From the NCBI GenBank assembly GCA_965216755.1, contig CBDCGL010000011.1, forward strand, positions 960,001-1,024,000: a stretch of DNA of 64,000 nt. The letters are read 5' to 3'. The notes beneath the pieces are model-generated. The model was not told the DNA's origin. It searched no databases and was given only the letters and a program-made list of their open reading frames with translations. Numbering within the stretch: position 1 is the stretch's first letter; every line of letters begins with the position of its first letter. A program made the position numbers and the translations under genes. Source of the stretch: Alphaproteobacteria bacterium (lineage in GTDB: Bacteria > Pseudomonadota > Alphaproteobacteria > UBA7887). Shown here one piece after another: positions 14,198-29,450 of the stretch.

Positions 14198-15718
14198 CTA
14201 ACCTTTACATGCGCTGGCGAACGCCGCGCCAATCGCATTGAGCAACCCTTCCGACGTCACGCCAACACCGGATAAGCGCCCAGCCTCACCATGAATCCAC
14301 ACGCTCATGCAGGCCGCCTCGAACGCCGGCACTTGCCGCGTCACCATGGCCAAGACAATTCCGGCGAGCACATCGCCGGAACCGGCGGTTGCCAGATTCG
14401 GCGGCGCATTCGTGTTGATGACCGACCGACCATCCGGCGCAGCGACGATGGTATCAGATCCCTTTAGAACTACAATACAACTGCTTATCTCTGCCGCCTT
14501 TCTACATAAATCAAGTTTTGATATCGAATCATTTGTTATTTCAGGAAAAATCCTAGCGAATTCGCCCGCATGTGGCGTCAACACCCAAGAAGCCCCTGGA
14601 CAACGCGCCCGCGCCTGCCACAGGACCTGCGGATCATCTTGAAAAATCGTCAGGGCGTCTGCGTCTAATACTAAGGATTTGCCGGTTTCAGCGGCGGCCA
14701 ATACGCGACTTTTTGTGGCGCGTTTGACACCGGTTCCAGGACCGATTAGAAACGAACTTATTTTTTTATTTTCAGTAATTTTCGTGAATTTTTTGTCTTC
14801 TTTATTCAAGTCGTCGTCAACCGGCCGCAGCATCTCGGACGTCATTTGGCTGGCATAGACATCGCGCGCCGATTCGGGGACTGCAATTGTGACCAGTCCG
14901 GCACCCGCGCGCAGAGCCGCTGCAGCGGCAAGACGCGCCGCCCCTGTGCTCGATGCGCCACCACCGACCACCACGGCGTGACCGTGCTCGTACTTGTGCA
15001 TTTCTGCCAATTGCTGTGGCATTTCAGCGCGCCAAATGTCGGGATTGTTGCACCATTGCGGGCCGGCAACAGTCCTGACAATAGCATCGTCGATACCGAT
15101 ATCGGCGATGTGCAGGACGCCGCAGTGGCCGCGACCGGGCAGCAGGTAATGGCCGGGCTTCGGCCGACAAAATGTCACGGTAAGCGCCGCCCGAGTCGCT
15201 TGCCCCATGATCTGACCGCTATCGCCGTGAACACCCGATGGCATATCGATGGCCACAGCCGGCAGTTCGCGGTCGTGGACAGCACGCAGCGTATCCGCAG
15301 CCACGCCTTCGATCGGCCGGGACAAGCCGGCCCCGAATAAGGCATCGACAACCAGAGATTGACCGGCCATGACGGTGGGCCCCAAGGGCACTACGGGTCC
15401 GTGCCATCGGTCCGCCATGGTGGCAGCGTCGCCACGCATTTCCTCTCGCGCGCCCAGCAGTGCGACGGTCACTGGCCATCGTGCCGCCGCCAGGCGCCGG
15501 GCAACCCCGAACCCGTCGCCACCGTTGTTTCCGGGCCCGCAAATGACCACGGTCGGCCGAGGCGTCCAGCGTCGCCGAATCGCCCGCGCAACGGCAGCGG
15601 CCGCCTGATCCATCAGGTATATCCCAGGCATACTTTCTTGCATACTTTGGATGTCGGCCCAATACATTTGCTTTATCGACAAGACCACATGCGCAAGCGC
15701 TCTATCTGCTTGCGACAT
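14198..15718 (-). CDS. nnr: Bifunctional NAD(P)H-hydrate epimerase/dehydratase (YjeF)
   Basis: CGPGNNGGDG, VDALFGAGL, DMPSG, LDADAL, TPHAGEF, LATAGSGDVLAG; start uncertain (15718-15760). Confidence 0.95.
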   Translation of the reverse strand: MSQADRALAHVVLSIKQMYWADIQSMQESMPGIYLMDQAAAAVARAIRRRWTPRPTVVICGPGNNGGDGFGVARRLAAARWPVTVALLGAREEMRGDAATMADRWHGPVVPLGPTVMAGQSLVVDALFGAGLSRPIEGVAADTLRAVHDRELPAVAIDMPSGVHGDSGQIMGQATRAALTVTFCRPKPGHYLLPGRGHCGVLHIADIGIDDAIVRTVAGPQWCNNPDIWRAEMPQQLAEMHKYEHGHAVVVGGGASSTGAARLAAAAALRAGAGLVTIAVPESARDVYASQMTSEMLRPVDDDLNKEDKKFTKITENKKISSFLIGPGTGVKRATKSRVLAAAETGKSLVLDADALTIFQDDPQVLWQARARCPGASWVLTPHAGEFARIFPEITNDSISKLDLCRKAAEISSCIVVLKGSDTIVAAPDGRSVINTNAPPNLATAGSGDVLAGIVLAMVTRQVPAFEAACMSVWIHGEAGRLSGVGVTSEGLLNAIGAAFASACKG

Positions 15719-15913
15719 CGACCGAGTGTCCTGCATGTTCATTTTACTGAATGTTACCAAACACTTAGTTCACGATCTACCGCAACGGGCGAAAAAGAAC
15801 TACCGACAAGGAAATGATCAACTACTTTTGATGTTGAGTCATTTCTGCTTGGCAATAAGCTCGAAATGAGGTAGTACTGTGCACTCGATTCAGCCTCCTC
15901 ATACCCCGTCCCA

Positions 15914-16351
15914 GTGGAACCAGTTATGACTGCCGATGACGCAAAGAGCAATGCCGCGCGGATGCCGTGGTCCGTGAAAGGAATTGAGCCCGAGATCCGA
16001 CAATTGGCCAAGATCGCGGCCCGTCGGCGCGGCATGACGATCGGTGGTTGGTTAACTGAGATTATCCGTGCCGCCGCCGTCGACTCGCCCGACGCCACGG
16101 GAAGCGCCGGCACGACCGTTGATGCCGAATCTGTCGAAGCGGTACAAACCGCCATGTCTGAACTGATGTCCCGGGTTGAGACGTTAGAGACGCGCATGGA
16201 CCAAACTCTGACACCGCTGGCGCGCGCCGTGGTGAAGATCGCCGAACGTCTGGACCAGCTTGAATACGGTACCGGCGAATTGGATACGCCTGACCGCGAA
16301 CAGCGTTTCGGATGGCTCTATCGAACTTTTGGCCAGGACGAGCGACCTTAG
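15914..16351 (+). CDS. Small protein with PodJ-like N-terminal motif and coiled coil
   Basis: PWSVKGI...AARRRGMTIGGWL matches the recalled PodJ N-terminus; only 145 aa. Confidence 0.7.
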   Translation: MEPVMTADDAKSNAARMPWSVKGIEPEIRQLAKIAARRRGMTIGGWLTEIIRAAAVDSPDATGSAGTTVDAESVEAVQTAMSELMSRVETLETRMDQTLTPLARAVVKIAERLDQLEYGTGELDTPDREQRFGWLYRTFGQDERP

Positions 16352-16496
16352 CGAAGCAACCGCTGGCACGCGTGCTGGATTCCAACTCGTTTCCCAAACG
16401 ACACGACCCCGTTGCACGTATGTGACGGCACGCATGTTGTTGCGGGTCTGCAACAGGCGTGTTTGCGGCCATTCGACCCATCCACTTTGACAGATC

Positions 16497-16514
16497 ATGT
16501 AATAAAAATGACAC
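16497..16514 (+). promoter_or_regulatory. Possible Pho box upstream of phosphate porin
   Basis: ATGTAAT-AAAA-ATGACAC versus consensus CTGTCAT-AAAA-CTGTCAC (14/18); ~200 bp upstream of the OprO/P-like gene. Confidence 0.4.
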
Positions 16515-16710
16515 CGTGTGTGCGCCATTAAGGGCACGCGGTTCCTATCCACGGTCCGCTCAAATTCGATGCGCGTGCGTGCATCGGATTGGTGCCGGAC
16601 GCGCACTTGACGCGCGCTCCCGGCAAGCGATGGACAGTCGGTTGCAGAGGTCGGAGTAACGATCACCACCCACGCGCCACACTGTCCTGACGTTCAATCT
16701 GGAAAATCAA

Positions 16711-18135
16711 GTGTGGGTCATAATGTCTTGTTTTAAAACACAACTATCCCTTGGAACGGCACTCTGTCTGGTCCTTGGTGCCGGTCAGGCTTGGGCGCAG
16801 GATGCCGCGCTCGAGTCGCGAATCCAAGATCTCGAAAAGGAACTCATTTTGTTGAAGCGGCAACTTGAAAGCCAGGTTCAACAAGCACAGGAAGAGGCTG
16901 CGGCAGCGCGCGCGCAAGCCGAGGAAGTCGCAGGGCCAAGGCTTAAGATGAAGGGACCACGGCCGACGCTTGAATCGGCAGACGGGCGTTATTCCATTGG
17001 CCTCCGCGGCCGGATTCATTTCGATGCCGTCGCGTTCGATGTCGACGGGGGGAGCCCGATAGGCGATCTCAACAGTGGCACCAACTTCCGCCGCGCCCGC
17101 CTGGGGGTTGGCGGCAAGATCGACGGTGATTTTCGCTATCGCATCGCTTACGACGCCGGCGGCAGCAGCATCAGCGGAACGTCGGCGGGCATTGACGTCG
17201 CGTATCTTCAATATCGCGGCTTCAAGCCACTTAAACTAACGATTGGTAAGCACAAGGTACCGAGCAACTTCGAAGAGCAAACCAGCTCCAACAATATCAA
17301 CTTTATGGAGCGCTCGCTGGCCACGAACTTGGCCACCGGCCCCGCCGCGGGCAAACGCCCGGCGGTTTCAGCCATTGCGAACACCGATTTCCTCTATGTC
17401 GGTGGCGCGATATCGTTCGATGATGAAGGTACCGCGACCTTGGACGAAGGGCCGGCGCTCAACGGTCGTATCGCCGTGTTTCCCATCAACAATGACGAGA
17501 TGACCGTTCACCTCGGCGTGAACGGCTGGTACACGCCCGACCCTGCCGGCCGGATCAGATTTCGGGATCGGCCGGAAATTCGTGTCGATGGGACGCGTTT
17601 CATCGATGCCTCAAGCACCAGCGGCACAGATGGCGCCGGCAACGTCTTGCGACCTGAGGACGCGTTCAATGTCGGCCTCGAAGCCGCCGGCGCGTTCGGC
17701 CCGTTTTGGGCCCAGGCCGAATACAACATGTTCGGTTTCCGGCCGACATCAAACGGCGTGACCCAACCGGCTGACGTTTCGTTCGACGCCTACTATGTCC
17801 AAGCCGGTTTCATCGTCACCGGCGAACGCAAGCGCTACAGCAAATCAAACGCGGCCTGGGGCGGTGTGAAACCAAAGGACAACTTCAACATGGACGCCGG
17901 TCATTTCGGTGCCCTTGAAGTCGCGGCGCGTTACAGCAAAGCCGATTTGGATGATGGCACGGTTCTTGGCGGTGAAGAGACCAATTTCACGATCGGCGTG
18001 AACTGGTACCTCAACCCCAACATTCGGATTCTCTTCAACTGGGTCATGGCCGACGTTGATCGTCGCGATTCAACGGGCGTTCAACTTGGCGACGATTTCA
18101 ACGCATTTGGCGTCCGTTTCCAGGTCAATTGGTAA
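16711..18135 (+). CDS. OprO/OprP family phosphate/anion-selective porin
   Basis: Signal peptide AWA, periplasmic coiled coil, FRRARLG, FMERS, RPEIRV, GVNWYLN, terminal FQVNW. Confidence 0.9.
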   Translation: MWVIMSCFKTQLSLGTALCLVLGAGQAWAQDAALESRIQDLEKELILLKRQLESQVQQAQEEAAAARAQAEEVAGPRLKMKGPRPTLESADGRYSIGLRGRIHFDAVAFDVDGGSPIGDLNSGTNFRRARLGVGGKIDGDFRYRIAYDAGGSSISGTSAGIDVAYLQYRGFKPLKLTIGKHKVPSNFEEQTSSNNINFMERSLATNLATGPAAGKRPAVSAIANTDFLYVGGAISFDDEGTATLDEGPALNGRIAVFPINNDEMTVHLGVNGWYTPDPAGRIRFRDRPEIRVDGTRFIDASSTSGTDGAGNVLRPEDAFNVGLEAAGAFGPFWAQAEYNMFGFRPTSNGVTQPADVSFDAYYVQAGFIVTGERKRYSKSNAAWGGVKPKDNFNMDAGHFGALEVAARYSKADLDDGTVLGGEETNFTIGVNWYLNPNIRILFNWVMADVDRRDSTGVQLGDDFNAFGVRFQVNW

Positions 18136-18193
18136 CAGGATCCGATCGTTTTTCGAAACCAGCGAGGTTTCGGACCAGACGGCCTCCCAGCCC

Positions 18194-18224
18194 GGCCCCG
18201 CCCATTCCGCGGGGCCAATTTCTT
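18194..18224 (+). terminator. Probable terminator after porin
   Basis: GGCCCCGC-CCATTCC-GCGGGGCC followed by AATTTCTT. Confidence 0.55.
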
Positions 18225-18472
18225 GGCCTGCGTGGACAATAGACATAGGAAGCCGTGTCTCCACACACTTTCGTGCTAAGAACCTAATGCTGCCAATTTT
18301 CTAGCTGACATTGCATTTGTCGCGCAATAACTATCATTCTAATCTAACTTCTGTTTCTTCGTCCTGGATCGTGCTGAATAACGATCGAACGCCATCTGCG
18401 GAACGCTTGATCGTGCGCAATTGCTTTTGCGCGCGATTAGAGTTGCGTTGTTGGCGCGCTGTGTCGGAGTCT

Positions 18473-18487
18473 TGGCACAGAAATTGC
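18473..18487 (+). promoter_or_regulatory. sigma54 (-24/-12) promoter
   Basis: TGGCACAGAAATTGC is an exact TGGCAC-N5-TTGC consensus match. Confidence 0.8.
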
Positions 18488-18498
18488 GGTGACTCACT

Positions 18499-18639
18499 TG
18501 GGCCAACGCAGGCGAACCGCAAACATGACGTCGGCCCACGCATTTGCTGTGGAGAAAAAAGAGCTCCCGAATTGGTGCAATGACCTTCTGGCAAGCCATA
18601 ATTCGCCCTGCAGCACCACCCGCTGCAGGGCATTTTTTT
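18499..18639 (+). ncRNA. Candidate sigma54-dependent small RNA (~140 nt)
   Basis: Bounded by a consensus sigma54 promoter and an intrinsic terminator; no credible ORF or RBS inside. Confidence 0.5.
18605..18639 (+). terminator. Rho-independent terminator
   Basis: GCCCTGCAGC-ACCACCC-GCTGCAGGGC perfect 10-bp stem followed by ATTTTTTT. Confidence 0.85.
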
Positions 18640-18743
18640 AACCAGCCACAATCTATGGCACAGACCCAAACAAAACATAACGCGCAAAAAACTGGTGGTT
18701 GTTTTCAGCCAATTGGATATGGTTGCGCATCTGAAATGAAATC

Positions 18744-20288
18744 ATGGTGGGTCCGGTTTTGTCGTCAAACCGAGCGATTGGAGCTCATGAGGCCTTCGAC
18801 GCCGCTCCATTGCCGGAAATTCCGCCGGTGAATGCGCGCTCGTCGCTCAGACGGCTTCAATGGATCTACGGGCTTGCCTTTGCGGCCCTGGTCCTGGTCG
18901 CCGGCATCGCCGGCGCGTTGGGCCTGGTGACGATGTCACGAACGGCGCAAGAGGCCCAGCGAATCGGCAAGCTGTTGGAGATCGTCGAGACGACGCGCGG
19001 CGACCTCAACCGCCAGATCAAAGAAGTTTCCGACTACCACTTCCTTCCCGACCCAGATGCCAAACAACAGTTTGAGGCCTATGGAGAAACCATCGAAGCG
19101 AACTTCGTTGCCCTCGCGGCGTTGGCATTGACCACCGACGAACGCGCCGCCGTTGATCGCCTAACCGAGGCCTATTTGGCGGCACGCTCACACACGCTAC
19201 GGCTGATGGACGCCGCGCCGGGATCGATTCCAGAAGCCGATCGCCTCAAAATGTTCGACACAGAGCTCGAATCGAGCCACATGGACGCGACTGAAGACGC
19301 GTTCAGCGCCGCTGAGGAATTGTTGGTCGTTGGCCGCCTCCAACTGGACGAACGCACCACGGCGATGGTCCGCATTGCGCTAATAGTCATCGTCGTGCCC
19401 GTGGCCCTCTCCGCGGCTCTCCTGCTAGTTGCGCGGTTGTATCTCCAAAGCGCCTTCGTTGCACCACTGCACGACGTTCTCGCAGCCATGGAAATGTATC
19501 GGGCGGGCAATCTCGAATTCCGTGTCCGTGAGCGCGGCGCGGCGGAAATGGTCGATCTTCAACATTCGATCAATCGCATGGCGGGTGACCTGGAACAAAG
19601 CCGCGAGGCGTTGGTGCGGACAGAGAAACAAGCTGCGCTCGGTGCCTTGGTCCCCGTGATCGCGCACAATATTCGCAACCCACTGGCTAGCATTCGCGCG
19701 ATCGCGCAGGTGTCTCAAGACGCATCATTGCCGACGGAAACGCGCGAAGCACTGACCAGCATCGTGGGCACCGTCGACCGGCTGAACCATTGGTTGACGG
19801 CCCTATTGTCTTACCTGAATCCGCTGGAGGTACGTCGCGCCCCGGCGAAACTCAGTGATTGCGTCGACCATGCCCTCGTTTTGATGGCACCAAAATTGGC
19901 GGAAAAAGACATAGCGGTGAAACAGCGCGACTGGCCATCAACGAAGCAAACCGAACTGGACGTCGAGTTGATGGAACAGGCCGTCTATGGCCTTTTGGCC
20001 AACGCCTTCGACGCATCTCCCGCTGAAGGGAGACTGACATTGCGCGCCGGCGCCGCGAACGGATCCAACTGGATCACCATAGAAGACCAGGGACCGGGTT
20101 TCCCATTCGCGCCTGACACCAATGGTGTGTTTCCTGGCCCAACCACAAAGACGCGCGGTAGTGGTCTCGGCATTCCCTTCGCCGCGAAAATCTGTGAGCT
20201 ACATGGCGGCGATCTGAAATTCGACAAAGCGCCGGGCGGCGGCGCCCGTGTCACCGTATCGGTTCCAACTCACACGGCGTCGGAATGA
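18744..20288 (+). CDS. Membrane sensor histidine kinase (periplasmic helical sensor, HAMP, HisKA, HATPase)
   Basis: Two TM segments, H-box AHNIRNPL, N-box LLANAFDA, G1 DQGPG, G2 GSGLG. Confidence 0.92.
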   Translation: MVGPVLSSNRAIGAHEAFDAAPLPEIPPVNARSSLRRLQWIYGLAFAALVLVAGIAGALGLVTMSRTAQEAQRIGKLLEIVETTRGDLNRQIKEVSDYHFLPDPDAKQQFEAYGETIEANFVALAALALTTDERAAVDRLTEAYLAARSHTLRLMDAAPGSIPEADRLKMFDTELESSHMDATEDAFSAAEELLVVGRLQLDERTTAMVRIALIVIVVPVALSAALLLVARLYLQSAFVAPLHDVLAAMEMYRAGNLEFRVRERGAAEMVDLQHSINRMAGDLEQSREALVRTEKQAALGALVPVIAHNIRNPLASIRAIAQVSQDASLPTETREALTSIVGTVDRLNHWLTALLSYLNPLEVRRAPAKLSDCVDHALVLMAPKLAEKDIAVKQRDWPSTKQTELDVELMEQAVYGLLANAFDASPAEGRLTLRAGAANGSNWITIEDQGPGFPFAPDTNGVFPGPTTKTRGSGLGIPFAAKICELHGGDLKFDKAPGGGARVTVSVPTHTASE

Positions 20289-20315
20289 TGCCACGCGTGT
20301 CGCTGGGAAATCCGG

Positions 20316-21776
20316 ATGGAGAGTAATGAAAATTTGGCGGCCTACGCCGCAACCGGTCGCGTTCTTATTGTCGATGACGAGACCTTGTTGGCCAGGGCCA
20401 TCGCCCGTCAACTTAAACGCGCAGGTTTGGCCTGCGAGATCGCGGACACGCTCGACGCGGCGCGCCAAGCTCTGACACCAAAGCATCCGGGCGGTGAAAA
20501 CGGGCATGACATTGTGCTGCTCGATTTGCGCCTGCCCGACGGCAGCGGTATGGACTTGCTCTCCGAGCGCGCGCCGGCAAATGGCGGTGACGACGCACTT
20601 GGGCCGGCGTTCGTCGTCTTAACCGCGTTTGGCGACGTCGACAGCGCGGTCGAAGCTATGAAGCTCGGCGCAACAGATTATTTGCGCAAACCCATCGACT
20701 TGAACGAACTGGTTTTGGTCGTCGACAAAGTGCTGCGCTCGGCTGAGTTGCAATCACGGCTGGACTACTCGCGCCAGCGCGACGCGCGCGCCAGCGAGGG
20801 CCATGAACTGCTGGGCGAGAGTTCCACTCTGTCCGAGGCGCGCGAGCGCGTTATCGCCTTTGGTCGGCTGCACGGCGACGGCCAGGCGCCGCCGCCGACC
20901 GTGCTAATCACCGGCGAGACGGGCACTGGGAAAGATGTCGCGGCGCGGCTGATCCACGCCAACGGCCCGAACCCCGACAGCCCGTTTGTTCAGGTCGACT
21001 GCGCGTCCCTGCCCCGCGATTTGATGGAGGCAGAATTGTTTGGCCATGTACGCGGCGCATTTACCAGCGCCCACGGCCACCGTGTCGGCCTCATAGAAGC
21101 GGCTGAAAACGGAACCTTGTTCCTGGATGAAATTGGTGAACTGCCGAACGAACTGCAGGCAAAACTTTTGAATGTGGTCGAACGGCGCTTGGTACGTCGT
21201 ATCGGATCGAGCCGTGAAGTTAGCGTCCATGCGCGCTTCGTCGCGGCCACAAATCGCAACCTCGCGGCGATGGTAAACGACAACAACTTTCGATCGGATT
21301 TGTACTATCGGCTCAACGTGCTCGCGCTTGAAATGCCGCCGTTGCGGATTTGTGGCAGCGATTCAATCATTCTCGCCGAGTATTTCGCCCGCCAGACGGC
21401 GCGGCGTTATGGGCGCCGTTCCGGACGGTTTACCGAGCAGGCCAAAACCGCGCTCCAACGCTACACGTGGCCTGGCAACGTGCGCGAGCTCAAGCACGTC
21501 ATTGAACGCGCCGCGTTGCTCACCGACAGCGATATGATCGATGAATCTGGCTTGGCTCTCAACCACCCCGTCATGGTTCACCGTGACAGCGGCAAATCGG
21601 ACGGGCGTTTCGGTGGTCGCACGCTAAGAGATGCAGAAAGATCGATGATCGTGGACGCACTTCGGCACTGCGGCGGCAACGTCTCAAAGGCGGCACGCCG
21701 GCTGGGCATCACCCGTATGGCGATGCGCTATCGCATGGAAAAACACGGACTGCGCGGGGGCGGCGATGCTGGCTGA
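20316..21776 (+). CDS. sigma54-dependent response regulator (NtrC family, REC-AAA+-Fis HTH)
   Basis: VLIVDDE, LLDLRLPD, GETGTGKD, ELFGH..GAFTSA, LFLDEIGE, WPGNVREL, C-terminal HTH. Confidence 0.95.
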   Translation: MESNENLAAYAATGRVLIVDDETLLARAIARQLKRAGLACEIADTLDAARQALTPKHPGGENGHDIVLLDLRLPDGSGMDLLSERAPANGGDDALGPAFVVLTAFGDVDSAVEAMKLGATDYLRKPIDLNELVLVVDKVLRSAELQSRLDYSRQRDARASEGHELLGESSTLSEARERVIAFGRLHGDGQAPPPTVLITGETGTGKDVAARLIHANGPNPDSPFVQVDCASLPRDLMEAELFGHVRGAFTSAHGHRVGLIEAAENGTLFLDEIGELPNELQAKLLNVVERRLVRRIGSSREVSVHARFVAATNRNLAAMVNDNNFRSDLYYRLNVLALEMPPLRICGSDSIILAEYFARQTARRYGRRSGRFTEQAKTALQRYTWPGNVRELKHVIERAALLTDSDMIDESGLALNHPVMVHRDSGKSDGRFGGRTLRDAERSMIVDALRHCGGNVSKAARRLGITRMAMRYRMEKHGLRGGGDAG

Positions 21777-22001
21777 GATGGTTGATTTCAGCCAGCAATG
21801 GCTACAGTCATCCGAGTAATGGCTTGACTGCATCCAATATTCATGAATAAACGTTGGGAATAATGAAATAAAAACACTACAGATAGTCATACGATCAAAT
21901 GCATTATCATAAGATATCCTATTATATTTCTTGACATCGCAAGTGTTTCCCCGCTTTAAACGAAATCTGGTGGGAAAGCTTGGATAAGGGAAGTAGAAAT
22001 C

Positions 22002-24509
22002 ATGGGGAGGACGGGGCAACGCTGCATGACAGCGATTGCAGCTTGCTTGTTGTGCAACACAGCGGCGAAGGCACAAGACGCGAATCCCACGCTTGTATTG
22101 CCAGACATCGAAGTCATCGGGGTCTCGCCTGTCCCAGGGACGGGCGTCAACGCAGATAAAGTGCCGTCGAACGTGCGTTCGATTGACGGCGAACAAATAA
22201 AGCGGAGCCGACAACAGAGTATCACCCAGGTGCTCGATGCCAATATTGGCAGCGCCGCGGCCGTCGACGTACAGAACAACCCCTATCAAAAAGATCTTAA
22301 CTATCGTGGCTTTACCGCCTCGCCCCTGTTGGGTGCACCGCAGGGCATTGCGGTCTACCAAAACGGCATTCGGATCAACGAGCCCTTCGGCGACACGGTC
22401 CAATGGGATGTCGTCCCCGAAAACGCGATCCGCAGCGTCGATCTCGTCAACTCCAATCCCGTCTTCGGCTTGAATGCCATCGGCGGCGCTTTAGCCATGC
22501 AACTCCAAAATGGGTTTGACTATCGGGGAGCAGAGGCTGCGGTGACCGGCGGCTATTTCGGGCGCTACACGGGCACGTTCCAGGCAGGCGGCGGCACAGA
22601 GGAAATCGGCGGCTACTTGGCGGGTGAGTGGCTCAACGATGACGGTTGGCGCAACGTGTCTGAATCCCGTGTCGGTCGGCTGTTTGCGGACGTTGGCTTC
22701 AGGCAAGAGCACTTCGCGGGCAATGTTAGCCTCACCTATGCTGACACTGACTTGACGGGCAACGGTTTGGCCCCGACCGAACTCCTCGACAAGAATCGAC
22801 GTGCACTATTCACCACCCCAGATATCACGGAAAACGAGCTGTTCTTCGTATCGGCGCAAGGTAACTATGATGCCTCTGACACGCTTTCAATCCAAGCCAA
22901 TACATATTTTCGGAACATCACGCGAACAACGCTGAACGGTGACGAAACCGAAGTCGAGGAATGTGAGGTCGATGCCGCAACGGACGCATTGCTCCTCGCC
23001 GACGCTGATTTCCTGGCAGGTGTCGCAAACTCAGGCAATGTTGTTGCAGCGGGAACAATCACCGATTTTCTTTGTGCCGAAGAAAGCGGCGATGACGAGG
23101 CCGAGATCTTACTCGACCAATTCGGCAACGCCATCGAGGCATTCGCCGACAATCTCAGCGCGTTGAATACCAGCACCACGCAGACCCGCGGCTATGGCAT
23201 CGGGTTGCAGGCGACATTGGATGATCAGATCGCGAACAGAGACAACCTGCTCGTTGTCGGCGGCAGTATTGACCTGGGCATTACCAAGTTCCATTCAGAA
23301 TCGGCGCTGGGGCTGCTCAATCTGGACCGTAGCGTGACGCCGCATACCCAGACCTTTGAGAGCACGGCCGTCTGGGAGTTTTCTGCGCCTGGCGGTGCTG
23401 TGGATGACTCAGATCTGGAACGCGGTGAAGTCGGTCCCGTTCGGGTGCGCGCACGCAATGACTATTATGGCCTCTATGTCAGCGACACCCTGACCGTACT
23501 ACCGAACCTGGATGTGACGCTAGCGGGCCGTCTTAATTATGCTCAGATCGACTTGCACGACGAGCTCGATTCCTATTTTCCACGCAATTCGACGCTCGAT
23601 GGCAGCCACAGTTTCAGTCGATTTAATCCAGCCGCGGGCGCCACATATCGCGTGCCGGGCCTCGGCCTAACGGCCTTCGGCGGCTATTCGGAAGCCAACC
23701 GTGCACCGACGCCGGCCGAACTGACGTGTGCCGACCCCGCGGCGCCCTGCCGGCTGCCAAATGCCTTCGTCGCCGACCCTCCCTTGGAACAAGTGGTCGG
23801 TCGCACGTTTGAGATTGGCTTGCGTGGTGATTTGCCGTCGGATTGGTTGCAGGGGATCACCAGCCTCAAGTGGAACGTCGGTGGTTTCCGCAGTGAGATT
23901 GAAGACGACATCATTTTCGTCAGCGCGGGTCCGACGTTGGGTTCCGGCTTCTTTACGAACGTCAGTGAAACGCGTCGGCAAGGTATCGAATTTGGCCTGT
24001 CTGGCCTGGCGGGCAAATTCCGATGGCAAGCCAATTATAGTTTCATCGAGTCGACGTTTCAGTCGACATTCAATGTCGCCTCGCCCAACCATCCCCAAGC
24101 GGTAGCAGGCGAAATCCAGGTCCGACCAGGCGACAACATCCCTGGCATTCCGCAGCACAATTTCCGCTTCGGTCTCGACTACGAGGTCTTGCCCGGTCTT
24201 TATGTGGGTGGCAACGTGGTCGCGACGTCTGGCGTATTTCTGCGCGGCGACGAGGCCAATCTTCTCGACAAGACCGACCCGTACGCGGTTCTCAATCTCC
24301 GCGCGGGGTACATGCTCAACGATCACCTCGAAGTCTTCGGTTGGATCGACAACGTCTTTAACACCGAATACGAGACCTTCGGCGTGTTGGGCGAAACCGG
24401 CAACGAAGTGCCGATCTACGAGCTGCCCAACGGCATTACAGATCCCCGCTTCTTGTCGCCCGGTCAGCCGTTCGGCGCATTCGTCGGCTTTCGCATTTTC
24501 CTCAATTGA
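22002..24509 (+). CDS. TonB-dependent receptor (YRGFTASPLLG / CADPxxPC subfamily, LutH-like)
   Basis: Signal peptide, TonB box-like DIEVIG, plug YRGF...NGIRINEPFGDTVQWD, FGLNAIGGA, NVFNTEY and C-terminal beta strand. Confidence 0.92.
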   Translation: MGRTGQRCMTAIAACLLCNTAAKAQDANPTLVLPDIEVIGVSPVPGTGVNADKVPSNVRSIDGEQIKRSRQQSITQVLDANIGSAAAVDVQNNPYQKDLNYRGFTASPLLGAPQGIAVYQNGIRINEPFGDTVQWDVVPENAIRSVDLVNSNPVFGLNAIGGALAMQLQNGFDYRGAEAAVTGGYFGRYTGTFQAGGGTEEIGGYLAGEWLNDDGWRNVSESRVGRLFADVGFRQEHFAGNVSLTYADTDLTGNGLAPTELLDKNRRALFTTPDITENELFFVSAQGNYDASDTLSIQANTYFRNITRTTLNGDETEVEECEVDAATDALLLADADFLAGVANSGNVVAAGTITDFLCAEESGDDEAEILLDQFGNAIEAFADNLSALNTSTTQTRGYGIGLQATLDDQIANRDNLLVVGGSIDLGITKFHSESALGLLNLDRSVTPHTQTFESTAVWEFSAPGGAVDDSDLERGEVGPVRVRARNDYYGLYVSDTLTVLPNLDVTLAGRLNYAQIDLHDELDSYFPRNSTLDGSHSFSRFNPAAGATYRVPGLGLTAFGGYSEANRAPTPAELTCADPAAPCRLPNAFVADPPLEQVVGRTFEIGLRGDLPSDWLQGITSLKWNVGGFRSEIEDDIIFVSAGPTLGSGFFTNVSETRRQGIEFGLSGLAGKFRWQANYSFIESTFQSTFNVASPNHPQAVAGEIQVRPGDNIPGIPQHNFRFGLDYEVLPGLYVGGNVVATSGVFLRGDEANLLDKTDPYAVLNLRAGYMLNDHLEVFGWIDNVFNTEYETFGVLGETGNEVPIYELPNGITDPRFLSPGQPFGAFVGFRIFLN

Positions 24510-24752
24510 GATGGCTGCGAGACCCACTCAGAGAGTGAGGCGGCCCTGGGCGTGGCGCCCTAAACAGCGGGGCAGACAGACTGGGAAGATAGGCGTCATT
24601 GGTGTATGGTATGCGACAAATAACGGTGTCACGGACTGCATAACAAAGCCGCAGCCGGCCCTTGGGTCGGGTGCGGTTGATTTTGCGTGAACTGGATCGC
24701 AGTGGCTGGGGGCGGCCGCGGGCAATAAGGAAAAGCAAGAAAGAACGAGGCC

Positions 24753-25415
24753 ATGGACACGTCATCGCTCCTCGTCCAAGGCTACGGCCTGATCGAAAAA
24801 GGCGGCCCTGTCATGGCCGTCTTGTTAGCCCTATCGGTGGTCGCTTTGGCGATCATTTTGGTCAAGCTGTTGCAGTTTTGGCGATGCCAGTTGAATCGCA
24901 CAGGTTTCGTTGAAAGAGCCCTCAAAGCCTTGCACCATGGTGACGAGCGCGCAGCCCTGGGCGAATTGGTCACGTCTCCGCACCCGACCGCGCGGGTGAT
25001 GGAAGCGGCGATCATGACAGCCGGCGATCGTCGGCTGAGTGCGGAAGATCGCGATGCCGAAATCAGCCGAGTCGGCACGGCGCATATCCGCAATCTCGAA
25101 TCCTATTTGCGGGGGCTTGAGGTCATCGCCAATCTAAGCCCCCTGCTGGGACTTCTTGGCACGGTCATGGGGATGATCGGTGCCTTCGCCCAGTTGGAGG
25201 CCGCGGGCACCAAGGTCGACCCGGCTTTGCTTGCCGGCGGCATATGGGAAGCCTTGTTGACCACCGCTTTCGGGCTGACCGTCGCGATCCCGACATTGGG
25301 CGTCTACCATGTTCTGGAAGGACGGGTGGATACCGTGCGCGCCAACATGAAGGACGCCACCACACGCATTGTCAGCGTCTACCGGGGTGGCCACCGCCCT
25401 GCCGCGGCGGCGTAG
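24753..25415 (+). CDS. exbB: ExbB/TolQ/MotA proton channel
   Basis: GGPVM, SPLLGLLGTVMGMI, GIWEALLTTAFGL.VAIP. Confidence 0.9.
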   Translation: MDTSSLLVQGYGLIEKGGPVMAVLLALSVVALAIILVKLLQFWRCQLNRTGFVERALKALHHGDERAALGELVTSPHPTARVMEAAIMTAGDRRLSAEDRDAEISRVGTAHIRNLESYLRGLEVIANLSPLLGLLGTVMGMIGAFAQLEAAGTKVDPALLAGGIWEALLTTAFGLTVAIPTLGVYHVLEGRVDTVRANMKDATTRIVSVYRGGHRPAAAA

Positions 25416-25442
25416 GGCGGTCGCGCGGTCGTGGGGTAAGCG

Positions 25443-25844
25443 ATGGATTTTGGCGATCGTGAACGGCCACATCCGAGCCTGAATATCGCACCACTGATCG
25501 ATATTGTTTTTCTGATGCTGGTGTTCTTCATGCTGGCCAGCACATTTATCGAGCCGCAAGCAATCGACTTGGTGCTGCCGGGCGACGGCGTGCCCGGTAA
25601 TGTCAGTGAAGAGCCACTTTTGGTCGACGTTGCGACCGATGGGCAAATCGCCTTGAATGGCCTCAGTCTTAGCCTTGATCAGCTGGGACCAGAACTGTCT
25701 GGCAGGCTCGGCGGCGATGTCGGCCGGGCGATAACGGTCCGCGCCGATGCCGACGTTGCTGTCCAGCTTCTCGTCACGGTTATGGATCGAATCCGTAGCA
25801 CGGGCACGCGAAATGTTCGGCTCGCCACGCCCGACGCCCAGTGA
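25443..25844 (+). CDS. exbD: ExbD/TolR protein (canonical Asp)
   Basis: LNIAPLIDIVFLMLVFFML, VRADAD. Confidence 0.9.
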   Translation: MDFGDRERPHPSLNIAPLIDIVFLMLVFFMLASTFIEPQAIDLVLPGDGVPGNVSEEPLLVDVATDGQIALNGLSLSLDQLGPELSGRLGGDVGRAITVRADADVAVQLLVTVMDRIRSTGTRNVRLATPDAQ

Positions 25845-25867
25845 TGACCCGGCGGAGCACATGATCC

Positions 25868-26287
25868 ATGGCGGCGCGCGGCATCGAAATTGAGGGGCGA
25901 CAGTCACCGCGGGGCGCGATCAACCTGGTGCCATTGATCAATATCGTCTTTCTGTTGCTCATATTCTTCATGCTGACGAGCACACTCACAACGCCCGACG
26001 CCTACGACGTGGCGCTGCCGGAGTCCGAGAGCGGCGCCACCCACGAATCCGAACCGCTGGTCCTGTTGATCGCCGCCGATGGTGCCATCGCCATCAACAA
26101 CGAGCCGGTCGCGCTGGGCGACCTGGTCGCCCGATTTCAGGCGGCTCTCGCCGATGGCGCGTCGCCGTCGGTCATGGTGAAAGCCGACGCCACTGCGACC
26201 ACTGCCGCTGTCATCACTGCGATGAAGCGCGCCAAGCTGGCGGGGATCGAACGCGTCGCCTTGGCAACAGAAGGCCCGACACGATGA
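25868..26287 (+). CDS. exbD: Second ExbD/TolR protein (Asp-to-Asn variant)
   Basis: INLVPLINIVFLLLIFFML, VKADAT. Confidence 0.88.
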   Translation: MAARGIEIEGRQSPRGAINLVPLINIVFLLLIFFMLTSTLTTPDAYDVALPESESGATHESEPLVLLIAADGAIAINNEPVALGDLVARFQAALADGASPSVMVKADATATTAAVITAMKRAKLAGIERVALATEGPTR

Positions 26288-28059
26288 TCCGCGTGACGCT
26301 GTTCGACATATGCGTCGCAGTCATTCTTTCAGTTCTCGCCCATGCTGGGCTTATCTCAGCGACGTTTTTCGACGTCGAAGCCGCGCCCGAAGAGGAGGCC
26401 GTTGAGGCGGTTTATCTGGAATTGGCGTCGTTGGGCGACCTGGAAGGAGACATAGAACCCGACGCCGCGATCAGCGCGGACCCGTTGCCGGATCGCCCTC
26501 AGCCGCGAACGCGCCAAGAACTGGCAGCACTTGAGGTCCCGGATACGGCGACACCACCAACGCCGCAGGAATTGCCTGAATCACAACCTGCTCAGGACCC
26601 GCCCCCCCTCGAAGTGCCGCCTGAAGTCGCACCGGACTTGGCGGCGTTGGCACCGCCAACGGCTGCCCCGCCAGAGCTCAGACCGCTCGACCTTCCGGTA
26701 CCAACGGCGAACATTGCGCCGACGACGATCGCCGATCAACCCCTGCCACCCGACCAGCGTGCACCCCAAGTTCCGAGTGAATTTGTGCCACAACAATTGG
26801 CTGTCGCGGAGCAACCACCGATCACCGACGCCCAAGCCACACGAATGTTTCAAAAGGAAACGGCGGTTCGTCCGGTGGTTGACCTGGCCGAACAGGCCGT
26901 GCCCACCACCGAGACACCGCTTGCCAAACCCGTGGTCATGGTCGAGCCACCGCCCGACGCGATGATTCTGCAAAAACCGACGGACATCGACCCACAAAGC
27001 TTGCTTGAATTGACCGTTCCCGACGAACCGCAGCTTGATCCTGACAAGCCACTGATCCCGGAAATCCGAGCACCCACGGTCGACGATTCCATGGCGCGTC
27101 AGGACCGCTCAACGCCCCCGCAGATCTCTCCGCCGCCGCCGCCGGACTCGCCGGTGCGCCCAGATTTGGTGGCACCGCGACGCGCGCAAGAAATCGAAGT
27201 TCAGACCCGACCAGACGCGGCAACACCGCTCACCGCAAGCGCGGAACCGGCGCGCGCACGCCCGCCACTGCCGATCCCTGAAGATCTGGAACAACCGGTA
27301 GATTTGGCCCGTCTGCAAATACCAGAACTGGATTCCACGCCGGCGCCAACCCGACCGACCGTGCCACCGCCCGAACCAGCGCCATCGCCGGCGCGCGCCG
27401 CCGAGATTGTGCCGCAAGCACGGCCAGAGCGTGCGGAAACAGTGGTCTCCGCTCCGCTGCCGTCTGCGCTACCCGATCTTTCGCGCGTTGAAGTCGCGGC
27501 CGTCGAACGACCCCCACAACCGAATGCACCAGCGAGCCCGCCGACGCCGGTTGCGCGGCGCCCTCAGCCAGCCCCGGTTGCAACGCCGCCTGCCCCGGCT
27601 CCCGAACGCGTGGCGGTACCCCGAGCCCCAGCGGTTCAGGCGCCGCCGCCGAGGCGCGAAAATCCCACAACGGATAGGCAAGTGGCGGCAGCGTCGCCGC
27701 CCGCGGCCTTGCCGCCGGAAGCAATGCCCGCGACGAAGCAAAGACGCGGCGCGGATAGCGGTTCGCTCACCCAGTACACGACCGCCCTTCACACCATGAT
27801 CAATGTTGTGGCGCAGCAGAATTATCCGCGTCAAGCTATACGCCGTCGCGAGGAAGGGGCCGTGCGTGTGCGTCTGACTGTGGGGGCCAGCGGCGACCTT
27901 CTCAAAGTGGATGTGATTGACGATGGCGGCGCGCCGCGGCGCCTGGTGAGTGCCGCGCTCGCCGCAGTTGAGCGGGCCGCGCCTTATCCGGCATTTGTCA
28001 ATGGCATGATCCCGGAACCCACCGTATTTGAAGTCAAGATCGCGTACAAACTGCGCTAG
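26284..28059 (+). CDS. tonB: TonB energy transducer with very long Pro-rich linker
   Basis: N-terminal TM with SxxxH (SVLAH), several hundred aa of Pro/Ala/Glu-rich linker, C-terminal YPRQAIRRREEGAVRV TonB_C domain. Confidence 0.88.
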   Translation: MIRVTLFDICVAVILSVLAHAGLISATFFDVEAAPEEEAVEAVYLELASLGDLEGDIEPDAAISADPLPDRPQPRTRQELAALEVPDTATPPTPQELPESQPAQDPPPLEVPPEVAPDLAALAPPTAAPPELRPLDLPVPTANIAPTTIADQPLPPDQRAPQVPSEFVPQQLAVAEQPPITDAQATRMFQKETAVRPVVDLAEQAVPTTETPLAKPVVMVEPPPDAMILQKPTDIDPQSLLELTVPDEPQLDPDKPLIPEIRAPTVDDSMARQDRSTPPQISPPPPPDSPVRPDLVAPRRAQEIEVQTRPDAATPLTASAEPARARPPLPIPEDLEQPVDLARLQIPELDSTPAPTRPTVPPPEPAPSPARAAEIVPQARPERAETVVSAPLPSALPDLSRVEVAAVERPPQPNAPASPPTPVARRPQPAPVATPPAPAPERVAVPRAPAVQAPPPRRENPTTDRQVAAASPPAALPPEAMPATKQRRGADSGSLTQYTTALHTMINVVAQQNYPRQAIRRREEGAVRVRLTVGASGDLLKVDVIDDGGAPRRLVSAALAAVERAAPYPAFVNGMIPEPTVFEVKIAYKLR

Positions 28060-28172
28060 TCCGCTTGAACCGGCTCGCCTTCGTCTCTACTTGCACAATG
28101 TGGGATATTGCGTGGCGCTGGGTTGGCTGTAGGCGTCAGCGCTTGCAATTTAGCCATCGTCCTTGGATGCGT

Positions 28173-28598
28173 ATGAACTGCAGACTCAATAGTTTCATGG
28201 CAGCGTGGGTGTTCGCCCTGATATGCGGCACGGCAATTGCCGGAGACGAGGCTGACGAGCCCGCTTGGGCACGTTCGAAGTGGATGGCCCACGACACAGC
28301 CAAGCAAGTCCAAATGGCCTACCGGTATGCCCAGGCGAGGGACTTCGACAAGGCGCTGGAACACCTCCTTATTGCGGCGCAGCGCGGTTATCCCCAGGCG
28401 CAGGCACAAGTTGGCTTCTATTTCGAACAGGGCCGTGGCGGTGTCGCCATCGATCGTATTGAAGCGGTAAAATGGTACCTTTTATCGCGCGAGCCGAGCG
28501 CTCTTGGATTCGCCGAACGGTTGGCCGAATCCATGTCACCTGAGCAATATGCCGAGGCCGAGCAACGGGTCGCCGACTGGCGACCAGTTTCTGAATAG
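28173..28598 (+). CDS. Periplasmic Sel1-repeat protein
   Basis: Signal peptide; AAQRGYPQAQAQVGFYFEQGRG...EAVKWY; C-terminal MSPEQYAEAEQRVADWRP. Confidence 0.8.
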   Translation: MNCRLNSFMAAWVFALICGTAIAGDEADEPAWARSKWMAHDTAKQVQMAYRYAQARDFDKALEHLLIAAQRGYPQAQAQVGFYFEQGRGGVAIDRIEAVKWYLLSREPSALGFAERLAESMSPEQYAEAEQRVADWRPVSE

Positions 28599-28670
28599 TC
28601 CTATCGGAGCATCGACCAACACACCAGCGGTCGCCGTATGGCGATGCAAGACGCCGAGCGCCAACGTCCG

Positions 28671-29450
28671 TCAGTTACAAGCGCCTGTCTCGTTCTTGAG
28701 TACGGCCAAGCGCTCCTGGGCCTGCTCGCGAACGATCTCAGCAAATGCATCAGGCGCCGGCGATTCAATCGCCCGCGCCAGCGATTGGCAAGCTTCGGCG
28801 GCATACTCGTCCACGTCCAAGGTGATCAAGCCGATCGCATATTCAAGGTGTGCCACCCCAGCGTCCGGTATCAATGACAGCGCCTTCTGGTAATGGGCAA
28901 TGGCGTCATCGGCGCCTGCGCCATACAAAATGCCCGCCATGAATCCCGCTGACGCAACGATTTCCGCATGCCATGCGCCCAGGCTGATATGGGCGCCGGC
29001 CAGATCGGGATCGAGAGCCAGCGCGCTATCCAGGGCCTCTCTGATTTTGGTCGCAAACCCCTCGTTTAGCGCCTCAAGCACGCCGATGGTTTGCGCGTAG
29101 CGGCCCATTGTATGCGCATGCTGGAGGTGCGCATTGGCGTTGTTGCCGTCCAACGCAATCGCCTTTTCGGCGTTTTCCCAACCACGCTTGAACAATTCTT
29201 GTTTGTCGTCATCGGACGCCCTGTAGTACCCGTGGATGCCCAAGGATTCAGCGGCCAGCGCATACCCTTGCGACGTTGCCAATTGTTCGCCGGCGTCCGC
29301 CGCCGCCAGAAAATTGCCCATCTGCATCTCGGCGAAAGCATCTTCGAATGACTGCGCTGCCGCCTGCAGTGAAACGCAGCATGCCAGAACAGGAATGAAG
29401 AACAAAAGCGCATGTCGCGCCGCGCGCCTCATCGGATCAAATATCGCCAT
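28671..29450 (-). CDS. Secreted TPR-like protein (paralogue of 31547..32335)
   Basis: Signal peptide, ALALDP TPR-like repeats, LGAWHAE motif. Confidence 0.75.
   Translation of the reverse strand: MAIFDPMRRAARHALLFFIPVLACCVSLQAAAQSFEDAFAEMQMGNFLAAADAGEQLATSQGYALAAESLGIHGYYRASDDDKQELFKRGWENAEKAIALDGNNANAHLQHAHTMGRYAQTIGVLEALNEGFATKIREALDSALALDPDLAGAHISLGAWHAEIVASAGFMAGILYGAGADDAIAHYQKALSLIPDAGVAHLEYAIGLITLDVDEYAAEACQSLARAIESPAPDAFAEIVREQAQERLAVLKNETGACN

Follow-up and report, generated by a model that had tools for sequence, protein, structure and literature searches.

A candidate lanthanide uptake locus in an alphaproteobacterium: a LutH-like receptor beside a Ton complex and an NtrC-family two-component system

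How bacteria sense lanthanides and control their uptake is only partly known. The lanthanide regulators described (MxaY, MxbDM/MxcQE, PedS2/R2 and the sigma-54 regulators of Methylobacillus flagellatus) are known from a handful of model methylotrophs and pseudomonads. LutH of Methylorubrum extorquens is required for lanthanum (La) uptake into the periplasm, the lutH promoter is repressed fourfold by La, and lanmodulin sits in the lut cluster with lutH (PMC7391723). LutH-like receptors are given as the most widespread lanthanome component in methanotrophs (PMC12482762). In M. flagellatus KT the gene of a La-induced receptor, Mfla_1253, is followed by that of a sigma-54-dependent regulator, Mfla_1254, and the same paper describes the organism as having neither lanmodulin nor the ATP-binding cassette (ABC) system (Hemmann et al., 2023, PMC9988556). 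The locus analysed here lies in a 64,000-nucleotide stretch of an Alphaproteobacteria bacterium (assembly GCA_965216755.1, contig CBDCGL010000011.1, positions 960,001 to 1,024,000), called the window below, and centres on a LutH-like TonB-dependent receptor, P0001. The locus is probably a self-contained outer-membrane lanthanide uptake module, for free or chelator-bound ions. What the sequences show, as set out below, is which genes it contains, where the receptor falls in its family, that this receptor and its TonB are the only ones found in the genome, and that both the synteny and a cis-element are conserved.

Receptor P0001 and its genome

Window genes were called from open reading frames (ORFs), Pfam and NCBIfam. 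The cluster that an earlier note on this DNA had listed was present in full, co-directional and on the + strand:

16711..18135, +, OprO/OprP-family porin (Pfam Porin_O_P)
18744..20288, +, HAMP-HisKA-HATPase sensor histidine kinase (Pfam)
20316..21776, +, NtrC-family response regulator, Response_reg, Sigma54_activat and HTH_8 (Pfam)
22002..24509, +, LutH-like TonB-dependent receptor P0001, plug and barrel (Pfam)
24753..25415, +, exbB (Pfam MotA_ExbB)
25443..25844, +, exbD, first copy (Pfam ExbD)
25868..26287, +, exbD, second copy (Pfam ExbD)
26284..28059, +, TonB of 591 aa with a Pro/Ala-rich linker of ~450 aa (TonB_C match)
28065..28598, +, Sel1-repeat-like protein (Pfam Sel1, 28.9 bits, under the cut-off of 30.7)

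P0001 has the architecture of a 22-strand-barrel receptor, with matches to Plug (E 3e-10) and TonB_dep_Rec_b-barrel (E 6e-41), and both receptor motifs quoted in the earlier note, YRGFTASPLLGAPQG and one of 26 residues, were found in its translation. Relatives were recovered for 3213 of 8000 scored candidates at E <=0.001; the closest were 60% identical and mostly unnamed or generically labelled. Candidate stretches in species genomes numbered 539, of which 522 proved to be relatives. Methanotrophs and methylotrophs supplied many hits, and Methylococcaceae, Methylomonas, Thiodiazotropha and Woeseiaceae are well represented. A PDB sequence search with P0001 gave no chain at E <=0.001.

Annotated plasmid-borne relatives matched P0001 over its full length by BLASTP (423-488 bits, 33-36% identity). 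The receptor of Methylobacterium nodulans pMNOD02 (L137, 248913-252672) scored 482 bits at 36% identity and 99% coverage (P0001 residues 3-832). Downstream come genes for a response regulator and for a 134-aa protein with four EF-hand loops of the form D-P-D-x-D-G-T, and then an mxa methanol-dehydrogenase cluster; proline-containing EF hands, which we take to be the mark of lanmodulin, make this protein lanmodulin-like. The Burkholderia multivorans receptor (423 bits, 33% identity) is divergent from a methanol/ethanol-family pyrroloquinoline quinone (PQQ) dehydrogenase gene, with a sigma-54 regulator and pqqABCDE then downstream.

A FastTree tree of 88 rows was built from 83 family members and five E. 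coli receptors (PqqU, BtuB, FepA, FhuA and FecA); loci entered only with one match spanning >650 residues, and the duplicates L057 and L058 were dropped. All 83 family receptors formed one clade with support 100, separate from the E. coli receptors including PqqU, supports being local and the E. coli branches long; clustering with siderophore or B12 receptors, which the earlier note had set as a check, was thus not seen. The window's clade of 18 rows (marine-type alphaproteobacterial) joined, with support 99, a clade of seven rows among whose members are the M. nodulans receptor beside the lanmodulin-like gene and a receptor from Xanthobacteraceae with kinase, regulator and PQQ dehydrogenase genes at its flanks. 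P0001 is read as LutH-like because of its full-length similarity to, and tree grouping with, receptors beside lanmodulin, PQQ-dehydrogenase or pqq genes. The resemblance to LutH first suggested in the earlier note therefore holds, but by proxy only, the comparison being with receptors named by their neighbour genes rather than with the studied LutH, LanA and Mfla_1253.

The host genome is 5.0 Mb in size and 99.8% complete. P0001 was the only TonB-dependent receptor found in it (tblastn; PF00593), and the TonB of the cluster was the only TonB_C match, beside five MotA/ExbB-family matches. The energiser that had been called dedicated is hence the sole one found, by its TonB, and not an extra one.

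PQQ alcohol dehydrogenases were represented by 12 genes, eight of them over the TIGR03075 cut-off. The position of the lanthanide signature, an extra Asp (PMC11845868), was set by aligning ADH1 with PedH (WDFD) and a calcium quinohaemoprotein (WDYT). Ten of the 12 carried D-[YW]-D in the alignment, and the remaining two, ADH11 and ADH12, had G-Y-D in place of the catalytic Asp motif. Lanthanide-type dehydrogenases, whose lack would have told against the earlier proposal, are thus present as ten D-x-D enzymes. They lie elsewhere than in the annotated parts of the window (21 of 46 flanking ORFs scanned), where no PQQ dehydrogenase was seen, in agreement with the earlier statement that it holds no xoxF or pedH. 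The genome also has pqqC and two pqqE-like genes over the cut-off, and can therefore make PQQ.

Peripla_BP_2 had no match in the whole genome, while 13 of 14 control genomes have one, and the FecCD match was marginal (27.6 bits); the usual inner-membrane route for siderophores, haem or B12 was therefore not seen. These findings suit a metal put to use in the periplasm, which the lone receptor could deliver with no onward passage through the inner membrane.

Receptor and dehydrogenases were also followed across relatives. The receptor was found in 18 of 22 genomes of the same family and PQQ dehydrogenases in all 22; the LutH-like gene was the only PF00593 match in 8 of 23 family genomes, host included. 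Among 18 genomes from other families of the class, five had a PQQ dehydrogenase and one of these five had a strong receptor homologue, while the 13 without a PQQ dehydrogenase had none; these genomes are kin, and the counts are not a statistical test.

Family neighbourhoods and rival substrates

Neighbours within 6 kb of the receptor were sought by tblastn with representative queries at 80 named-genome and 80 metagenome loci, counts that cover the queried families only. Pfam was run on 145 of 399 listed ORFs from 30 family loci. The tblastn counts were:

HisKA_3 kinase, 22/80 named-genome loci and 20/80 metagenome loci
LuxR-type regulator, 21/80 named-genome loci and 19/80 metagenome loci
YncE-like propeller, 10/80 named-genome loci and 10/80 metagenome loci
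PQQ dehydrogenase, 6/80 named-genome loci and 4/80 metagenome loci

Over the full flanks (10 kb) PQQ dehydrogenases were found at 10/80 named-genome loci. The HisKA_3 and LuxR-type genes stand by LutH-like receptors of Gammaproteobacteria and others (L071, L072, L083 and ~40 more among L057-L225), and three Pfam-scanned neighbour kinases carried the periplasmic domain LapD_MoxY_N. The two form a candidate widespread lanthanide-sensing pair. Their frequency means that a dedicated two-component system is common in the family; what is unusual in the window is its class. Loci with YncE-like propellers include L065, L078, L085, L090 and L092; in E. coli (L144) yncE stands next to, and divergent from, pqqU, which encodes the PQQ importer.

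On homology by proxy and genomic context, import of a lanthanide is the best-supported reading of the receptor, and one that we favour with some reserve. Several points weigh against it. Membership of the LutH group rests on proxies that are named by their neighbour genes and stand at 33-36% identity, and the subfamily is so large that its substrate may not be uniform. The best curated model is PqqU, far under its cut-off, and YncE-like propellers accompany family loci at the counts given above; at 70 of 80 family loci a nearby PQQ dehydrogenase is missing. Neither a lanmodulin homologue (tblastn) nor lut-type ABC parts (lutA/E/F-type) were found in the genome. Four family genomes and four others have PQQ dehydrogenases with no receptor homologue detected, and the association of receptor and dehydrogenase across genomes is confounded by kinship. 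Finally, kinases beside other family receptors have a MoxY-type domain, while the adjacent kinase has a four-helix bundle of a generic sort as its sensor.

The strongest competing substrate is another metal or metal chelate (iron, copper or zinc), sensed by the kinase-regulator pair, with the link to PQQ dehydrogenases as a family-wide tendency. The loci without a nearby PQQ dehydrogenase would agree with this, as would the generic source names of homologues ('Fe transport', 'iron complex receptor'), a kinase core nearest ZraS and a regulator nearest the AtoC/ZraR models; a sole TonB system might also be expected to serve iron. The genome-wide lack of Peripla_BP_2 and the marginal FecCD match argue against it, and FecR, FecCD and Peripla_BP_2 at E <=1e-8 were absent from the 145 neighbour ORFs of the 30 family loci. 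P0001 had no significant similarity to E. coli FepA, FhuA or FecA by BLASTP, and curated siderophore and haem models reached 63-70 bits against cut-offs of 223-317. We regard another metal as unlikely.

Import of PQQ or a PQQ-related quinone, as by E. coli PqqU, would feed the many quinoproteins of the host. PqqU leads both the curated models and the E. coli receptors in score, YncE-like propellers stand near 20 of 160 family loci, and the Burkholderia homologue adjoins pqqABCDE. The similarity to PqqU is remote, however (79 bits against a cut-off of 1200 for the model; 58 bits over residues 473-790 by BLASTP, with BtuB at 32 bits), E. coli PqqU falls outside the family clade, the host can make PQQ, and one family member adjoins a lanmodulin-like gene. 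This substrate is very improbable.

The porin was well identified (Porin_O_P E 8e-53, 180 bits against a cut-off of 20.9; PDB OprO and OprP structures at E about 1e-25). An OprO/OprP-type porin lay 5' of the receptor in 5 of the 17 related loci fetched from relatives, and within 6 kb at 4/80 named-genome and 2/80 metagenome loci. In marine alphaproteobacterial metagenome-assembled genomes the order is Nnr, divergent porin, receptor, exbB, exbD, exbD, in some with a Sel1-like gene, and there is no two-component system. Nnr (NAD(P)H-hydrate repair; window 14198-16197, - strand) keeps its place beside porin and receptor in distantly related genomes of this kind (L062, L074, L075, L124).

The earlier note had tied the locus to phosphate status. 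Pho boxes were scanned for at >=11/14 to the tandem CTGTCAT-N4-CTGTCAT, which we assume to be the consensus, and no such tandem was found 5' of the porin genes of the window and nine related regions. Joint acquisition of phosphorus by porin and receptor (as polyphosphate, phytate or metal-phosphate complexes, for example) under phosphate control is highly improbable: the porin is a conserved receptor neighbour in marine alphaproteobacterial loci, genes for a PitA-type phosphate transporter and a DUF47 protein lie ~2 kb upstream at the M. nodulans locus, and the kinase sensor fold resembles KinB among others, but beside the lack of a Pho-box-like tandem there is no regulator box near the porin promoter, the porin has its own terminator, and it is missing from the gammaproteobacterial loci of the family.

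The kinase-regulator pair, a nearby palindrome and a candidate sigma-54 unit

The regulator, and the kinase where the contig allows, lay directly 5' of the receptor in 8 of the 17 related loci. The pair is thus kept beside the receptor, a point on which the earlier note had made its proposal depend; it is missing from the other nine. Directly 3' of the receptor exbB-exbD-exbD was found in 9 of 17.

The kinase is laid out as a transmembrane segment, a periplasmic four-helix bundle, a second transmembrane segment, HAMP, HisKA and HATPase. The bundle was predicted in a model with a mean predicted local distance difference test (pLDDT) score of 81.5, and Foldseek gave only weak generic four-helix-bundle matches to it, the best being NarQ-, KinB- and Tar-like at E of at least 0.003. 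Two charged periplasmic motifs, RGDLYRQxKExFDYHF and DTELE, were invariant in 7/7 kinase orthologues. The regulator has receiver, AAA+ and HTH_8 domains (Pfam), with the Walker motifs GETGTGKD and LFLDEIGEL in its sequence. Its loop, ELFGHVRGAFTSA, reads GAFTSA, one change from GAFTGA, and ELFGH is retained. The GAFTGA loop was deleted in all seven alignable regulator orthologues (L029, L030, L033, L035, L036, L037, L045).

Two copies of a palindrome and a predicted promoter accompany the pair:

18696..18711, unstranded, regulator box 1, TGGTTGTTTTCAGCCA, a TGGYT-N6-ARCCA match 32 nt 5' of the kinase ATG
21779..21794, unstranded, regulator box 2, TGGTTGATTTCAGCCA, directly after the regulator stop codon and 137 bp 5' of the receptor -35 element
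21931..21960, +, sigma-70-like promoter TTGACA-N18-TTTAAA before the receptor gene, predicted from the sequence

TGGYT-N6-ARCCA had 16 matches genome-wide, and two near-identical copies, TGGTTG[T/A]TTTCAGCCA, are boxes 1 and 2. One or two copies stood in the regulator-receptor spacer of all eight related loci that have the regulator, and the palindrome was also 5' of the kinase gene in 4 of 6. In relatives it is followed by an A/T-rich stretch and a TTGAC-N17/18 promoter, with TTTAAA or TTACAC next. It was seen too 5' of the receptor in L034 (G006) and L032 (G005), both without an adjacent kinase or regulator; there the regulator may therefore be encoded elsewhere. L034 has a second, divergent exbB-exbD-exbD set.

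No sigma-54 promoter match (<=2 mismatches) was present in the regulator-receptor spacer 21777-22001, and none (<=1 mismatch) at the equivalent place in the 17 related loci. The earlier note had placed the receptor under a sigma-54 two-component system; the conserved element is instead the palindrome at sigma-70-like promoters. As far as we can see, the conserved circuit would act at sigma-70-like promoters, because the loop is deleted in the orthologous regulators and no sigma-54 promoter stands at their loci or before the receptor gene, and the sigma-54 element described below appears specific to the host genome. Position and co-conservation point to the adjacent regulator as the probable binder of the palindrome.

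The mechanism proposed runs as follows. The receptor, energised by what would be the only TonB-ExbB-ExbD2 complex of the cell, would admit a lanthanide to the periplasm, to meet the need of the ten PQQ alcohol dehydrogenases of lanthanide type. The kinase would sense a periplasmic signal through its four-helix bundle, presumably lanthanide sufficiency or shortage, and would phosphorylate the NtrC-family regulator. The regulator would then bind the palindrome TGGTTGWTTTCAGCCA before its own operon and the receptor operon and so set receptor expression. In this scheme we infer the substrate, the sensed signal, the palindrome's binder and the direction of regulation.

Between porin and kinase the following features were read:

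18194..18216, +, terminator-like hairpin after the porin, 8 G-C pairs and a T-rich tail
18410..18437, unstranded, imperfect 28-bp palindrome ATCGTGCGCAA-N6-TTGCGCGCGAT, ~40-60 bp 5' of the -24 element
18473..18487, +, sigma-54-type -24/-12 promoter match TGGCACAGAAATTGC (TGGCAC-N5-TTGC, 0 mismatches)
18499..18640, +, candidate small transcript of ~140 nt (small RNA, sRNA, or mRNA of a 38-codon ORF) between promoter and terminator, its start predicted
18605..18631, +, intrinsic terminator stem of 10 pairs (8 G-C), then T7

The 38-codon ORF (18525-18641, +; MTSAHAF...CRAFF) has three Cys and a weak ribosome-binding site, and ends inside the terminator T run.

Whether these features make up a real small unit, or a promoter match arisen by chance beside an ordinary terminator or leftover sequence with no functional sRNA, is a question on which the evidence divides about evenly. 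TGGCACAGAAATTGC is the only 0-mismatch TGGCAC-N5-TTGC match in the 64-kb window; it lies in a 609-bp spacer adjoining an enhancer-binding-protein gene, a strong terminator follows 118 nt 3' of it although the porin already has its own, the host regulator keeps ELFGH..GAFTSA, and rpoN is present in the genome. The candidate transcript folds at -50.3 kcal/mol (z -2.56 against shuffles). No RNA run was listed as holding the stretch, which four DNA runs of one study contain. On the side of chance, there are 24 perfect matches genome-wide, most inside crude ORF calls, so that by itself the match is suggestive but proves nothing. Blastn against the own genome and 22 family genomes gave chance-level matches only and no second copy. 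Nor did a homologue come from two metagenome scans, the first of which yielded no closer relatives and the second 575 relatives, none >48% identical and so too distant to bear on conservation of the unit. Rfam 15 had no match in 18100-18750, and in 16000-29000 at E <=1 two hits only, both inside coding genes and under the gathering scores. Predicted pairing with local mRNAs was not enriched in a crude RNA duplex scan against 4313 crude 5' regions (porin rank 3922, receptor rank 4035), whose whole-length duplexes are unrealistic and which was treated as uninformative. The orthologous regulators without GAFTGA, at loci without a sigma-54 promoter, also favour chance.

Control of the receptor through a sigma-54 sRNA, as the earlier note had it, finds no footing here: no homologue or Rfam match of the unit was found, the perfect site at 18473 precedes the terminator and not the receptor gene, and nothing links the unit to the receptor. 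The palindrome at 18410..18437, for which no regulon emerged in a genome-wide scan, is at most a conjectural enhancer site. The GAFTSA regulator may have in this unit one further output peculiar to its lineage, which is the weakest step of the account. Bolder still, and improbable in our estimate, is a picture in which the kinase would be a new periplasmic lanthanide sensor that, with the regulator, controls the only TonB-dependent import route of the cell, and the regulator would stand midway in leaving sigma-54, still firing one promoter, whose sRNA or 38-aa peptide would tie uptake to the porin, while sister genera are loop-less with their palindromes at sigma-70 promoters.

At the 3' end of the cluster, a homologue of the Sel1-like protein was found ~2.5 kb 3' of the receptor in L074, L076 and L084. 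A TPR-repeat protein (28671-29450, -) lies just beyond the cluster and is kept as a neighbour in L030, L031, L034, L037 and L147.

Comparison with described systems

The host, from a family of marine-type Alphaproteobacteria, offers a case reduced to one TonB system, one receptor and many dehydrogenases of lanthanide type, neither lanmodulin nor a lut ABC transporter having been found; knocking out the receptor or the kinase should therefore have clean effects. The adjacent two-component system with its 16-bp candidate operator is a directly testable circuit, and orthologues that keep or lack the GAFTGA loop offer a natural series for an enhancer-binding protein moving from sigma-54 to sigma-70 promoters. 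Should a substrate other than a lanthanide emerge, what is left is a regulated TonB-dependent receptor operon of the ordinary kind.

LutH of M. extorquens AM1/PA1 and P0001 belong to the same subfamily by proxy, through the 36% full-length identity to the lanmodulin-adjacent Methylobacterium receptor. The host is also taken to depend on D-x-D PQQ dehydrogenases, of which its genome has ten. The host differs in having no detected lanmodulin or lutA/E/F-type ABC transporter, in placing the receptor in one co-directional cluster with exbB-exbD-exbD-tonB and a kinase-regulator pair, and in having no other TonB-dependent receptor found in the cell.

The earlier note knew of no such arrangement, yet there is a precedent in the sigma-54 regulator gene directly 3' of a lanthanide receptor gene in M. 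flagellatus, as described in PMC9988556. As with Mfla_1253/1254, the receptor gene adjoins that of an enhancer-binding-protein-family regulator in the same orientation, and the reported lack of lanmodulin and the ABC system is shared. In contrast, the host regulator, encoded upstream with a membrane kinase as partner, has a receiver domain and a GAFTSA loop (deleted in relatives), and no sigma-54 promoter precedes the receptor gene; the two systems are likened by description.

MxaY-type kinases with LuxR-type regulators provide a second likeness, a two-component system beside a LutH-like receptor, at the 22/80 and 20/80 loci counted above. There the parts are HisKA_3 and GerE with a LapD_MoxY_N sensor, whereas the host has HisKA and an NtrC-type regulator with a four-helix bundle; the neighbour kinases are presumed MxaY orthologues from the Pfam domain name. 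Searches of open-access text yielded no description of a kinase and NtrC-type regulator pair beside a LutH-like receptor.

Rhodobacter capsulatus NtrC is a member of the enhancer-binding-protein family that activates sigma-70 promoters. By analogy only, the orthologous regulators resemble it in having no GAFTGA loop and tandem palindromes before TTGAC-N17/18 promoters; the regulator of the window differs in keeping GAFTSA, and the regulated genes differ. Against these systems, what is new is the joining of a LutH-type receptor, itself a known type, to the only Ton complex found in the cell and to a two-component system of the NtrC family whose candidate operator is defined.

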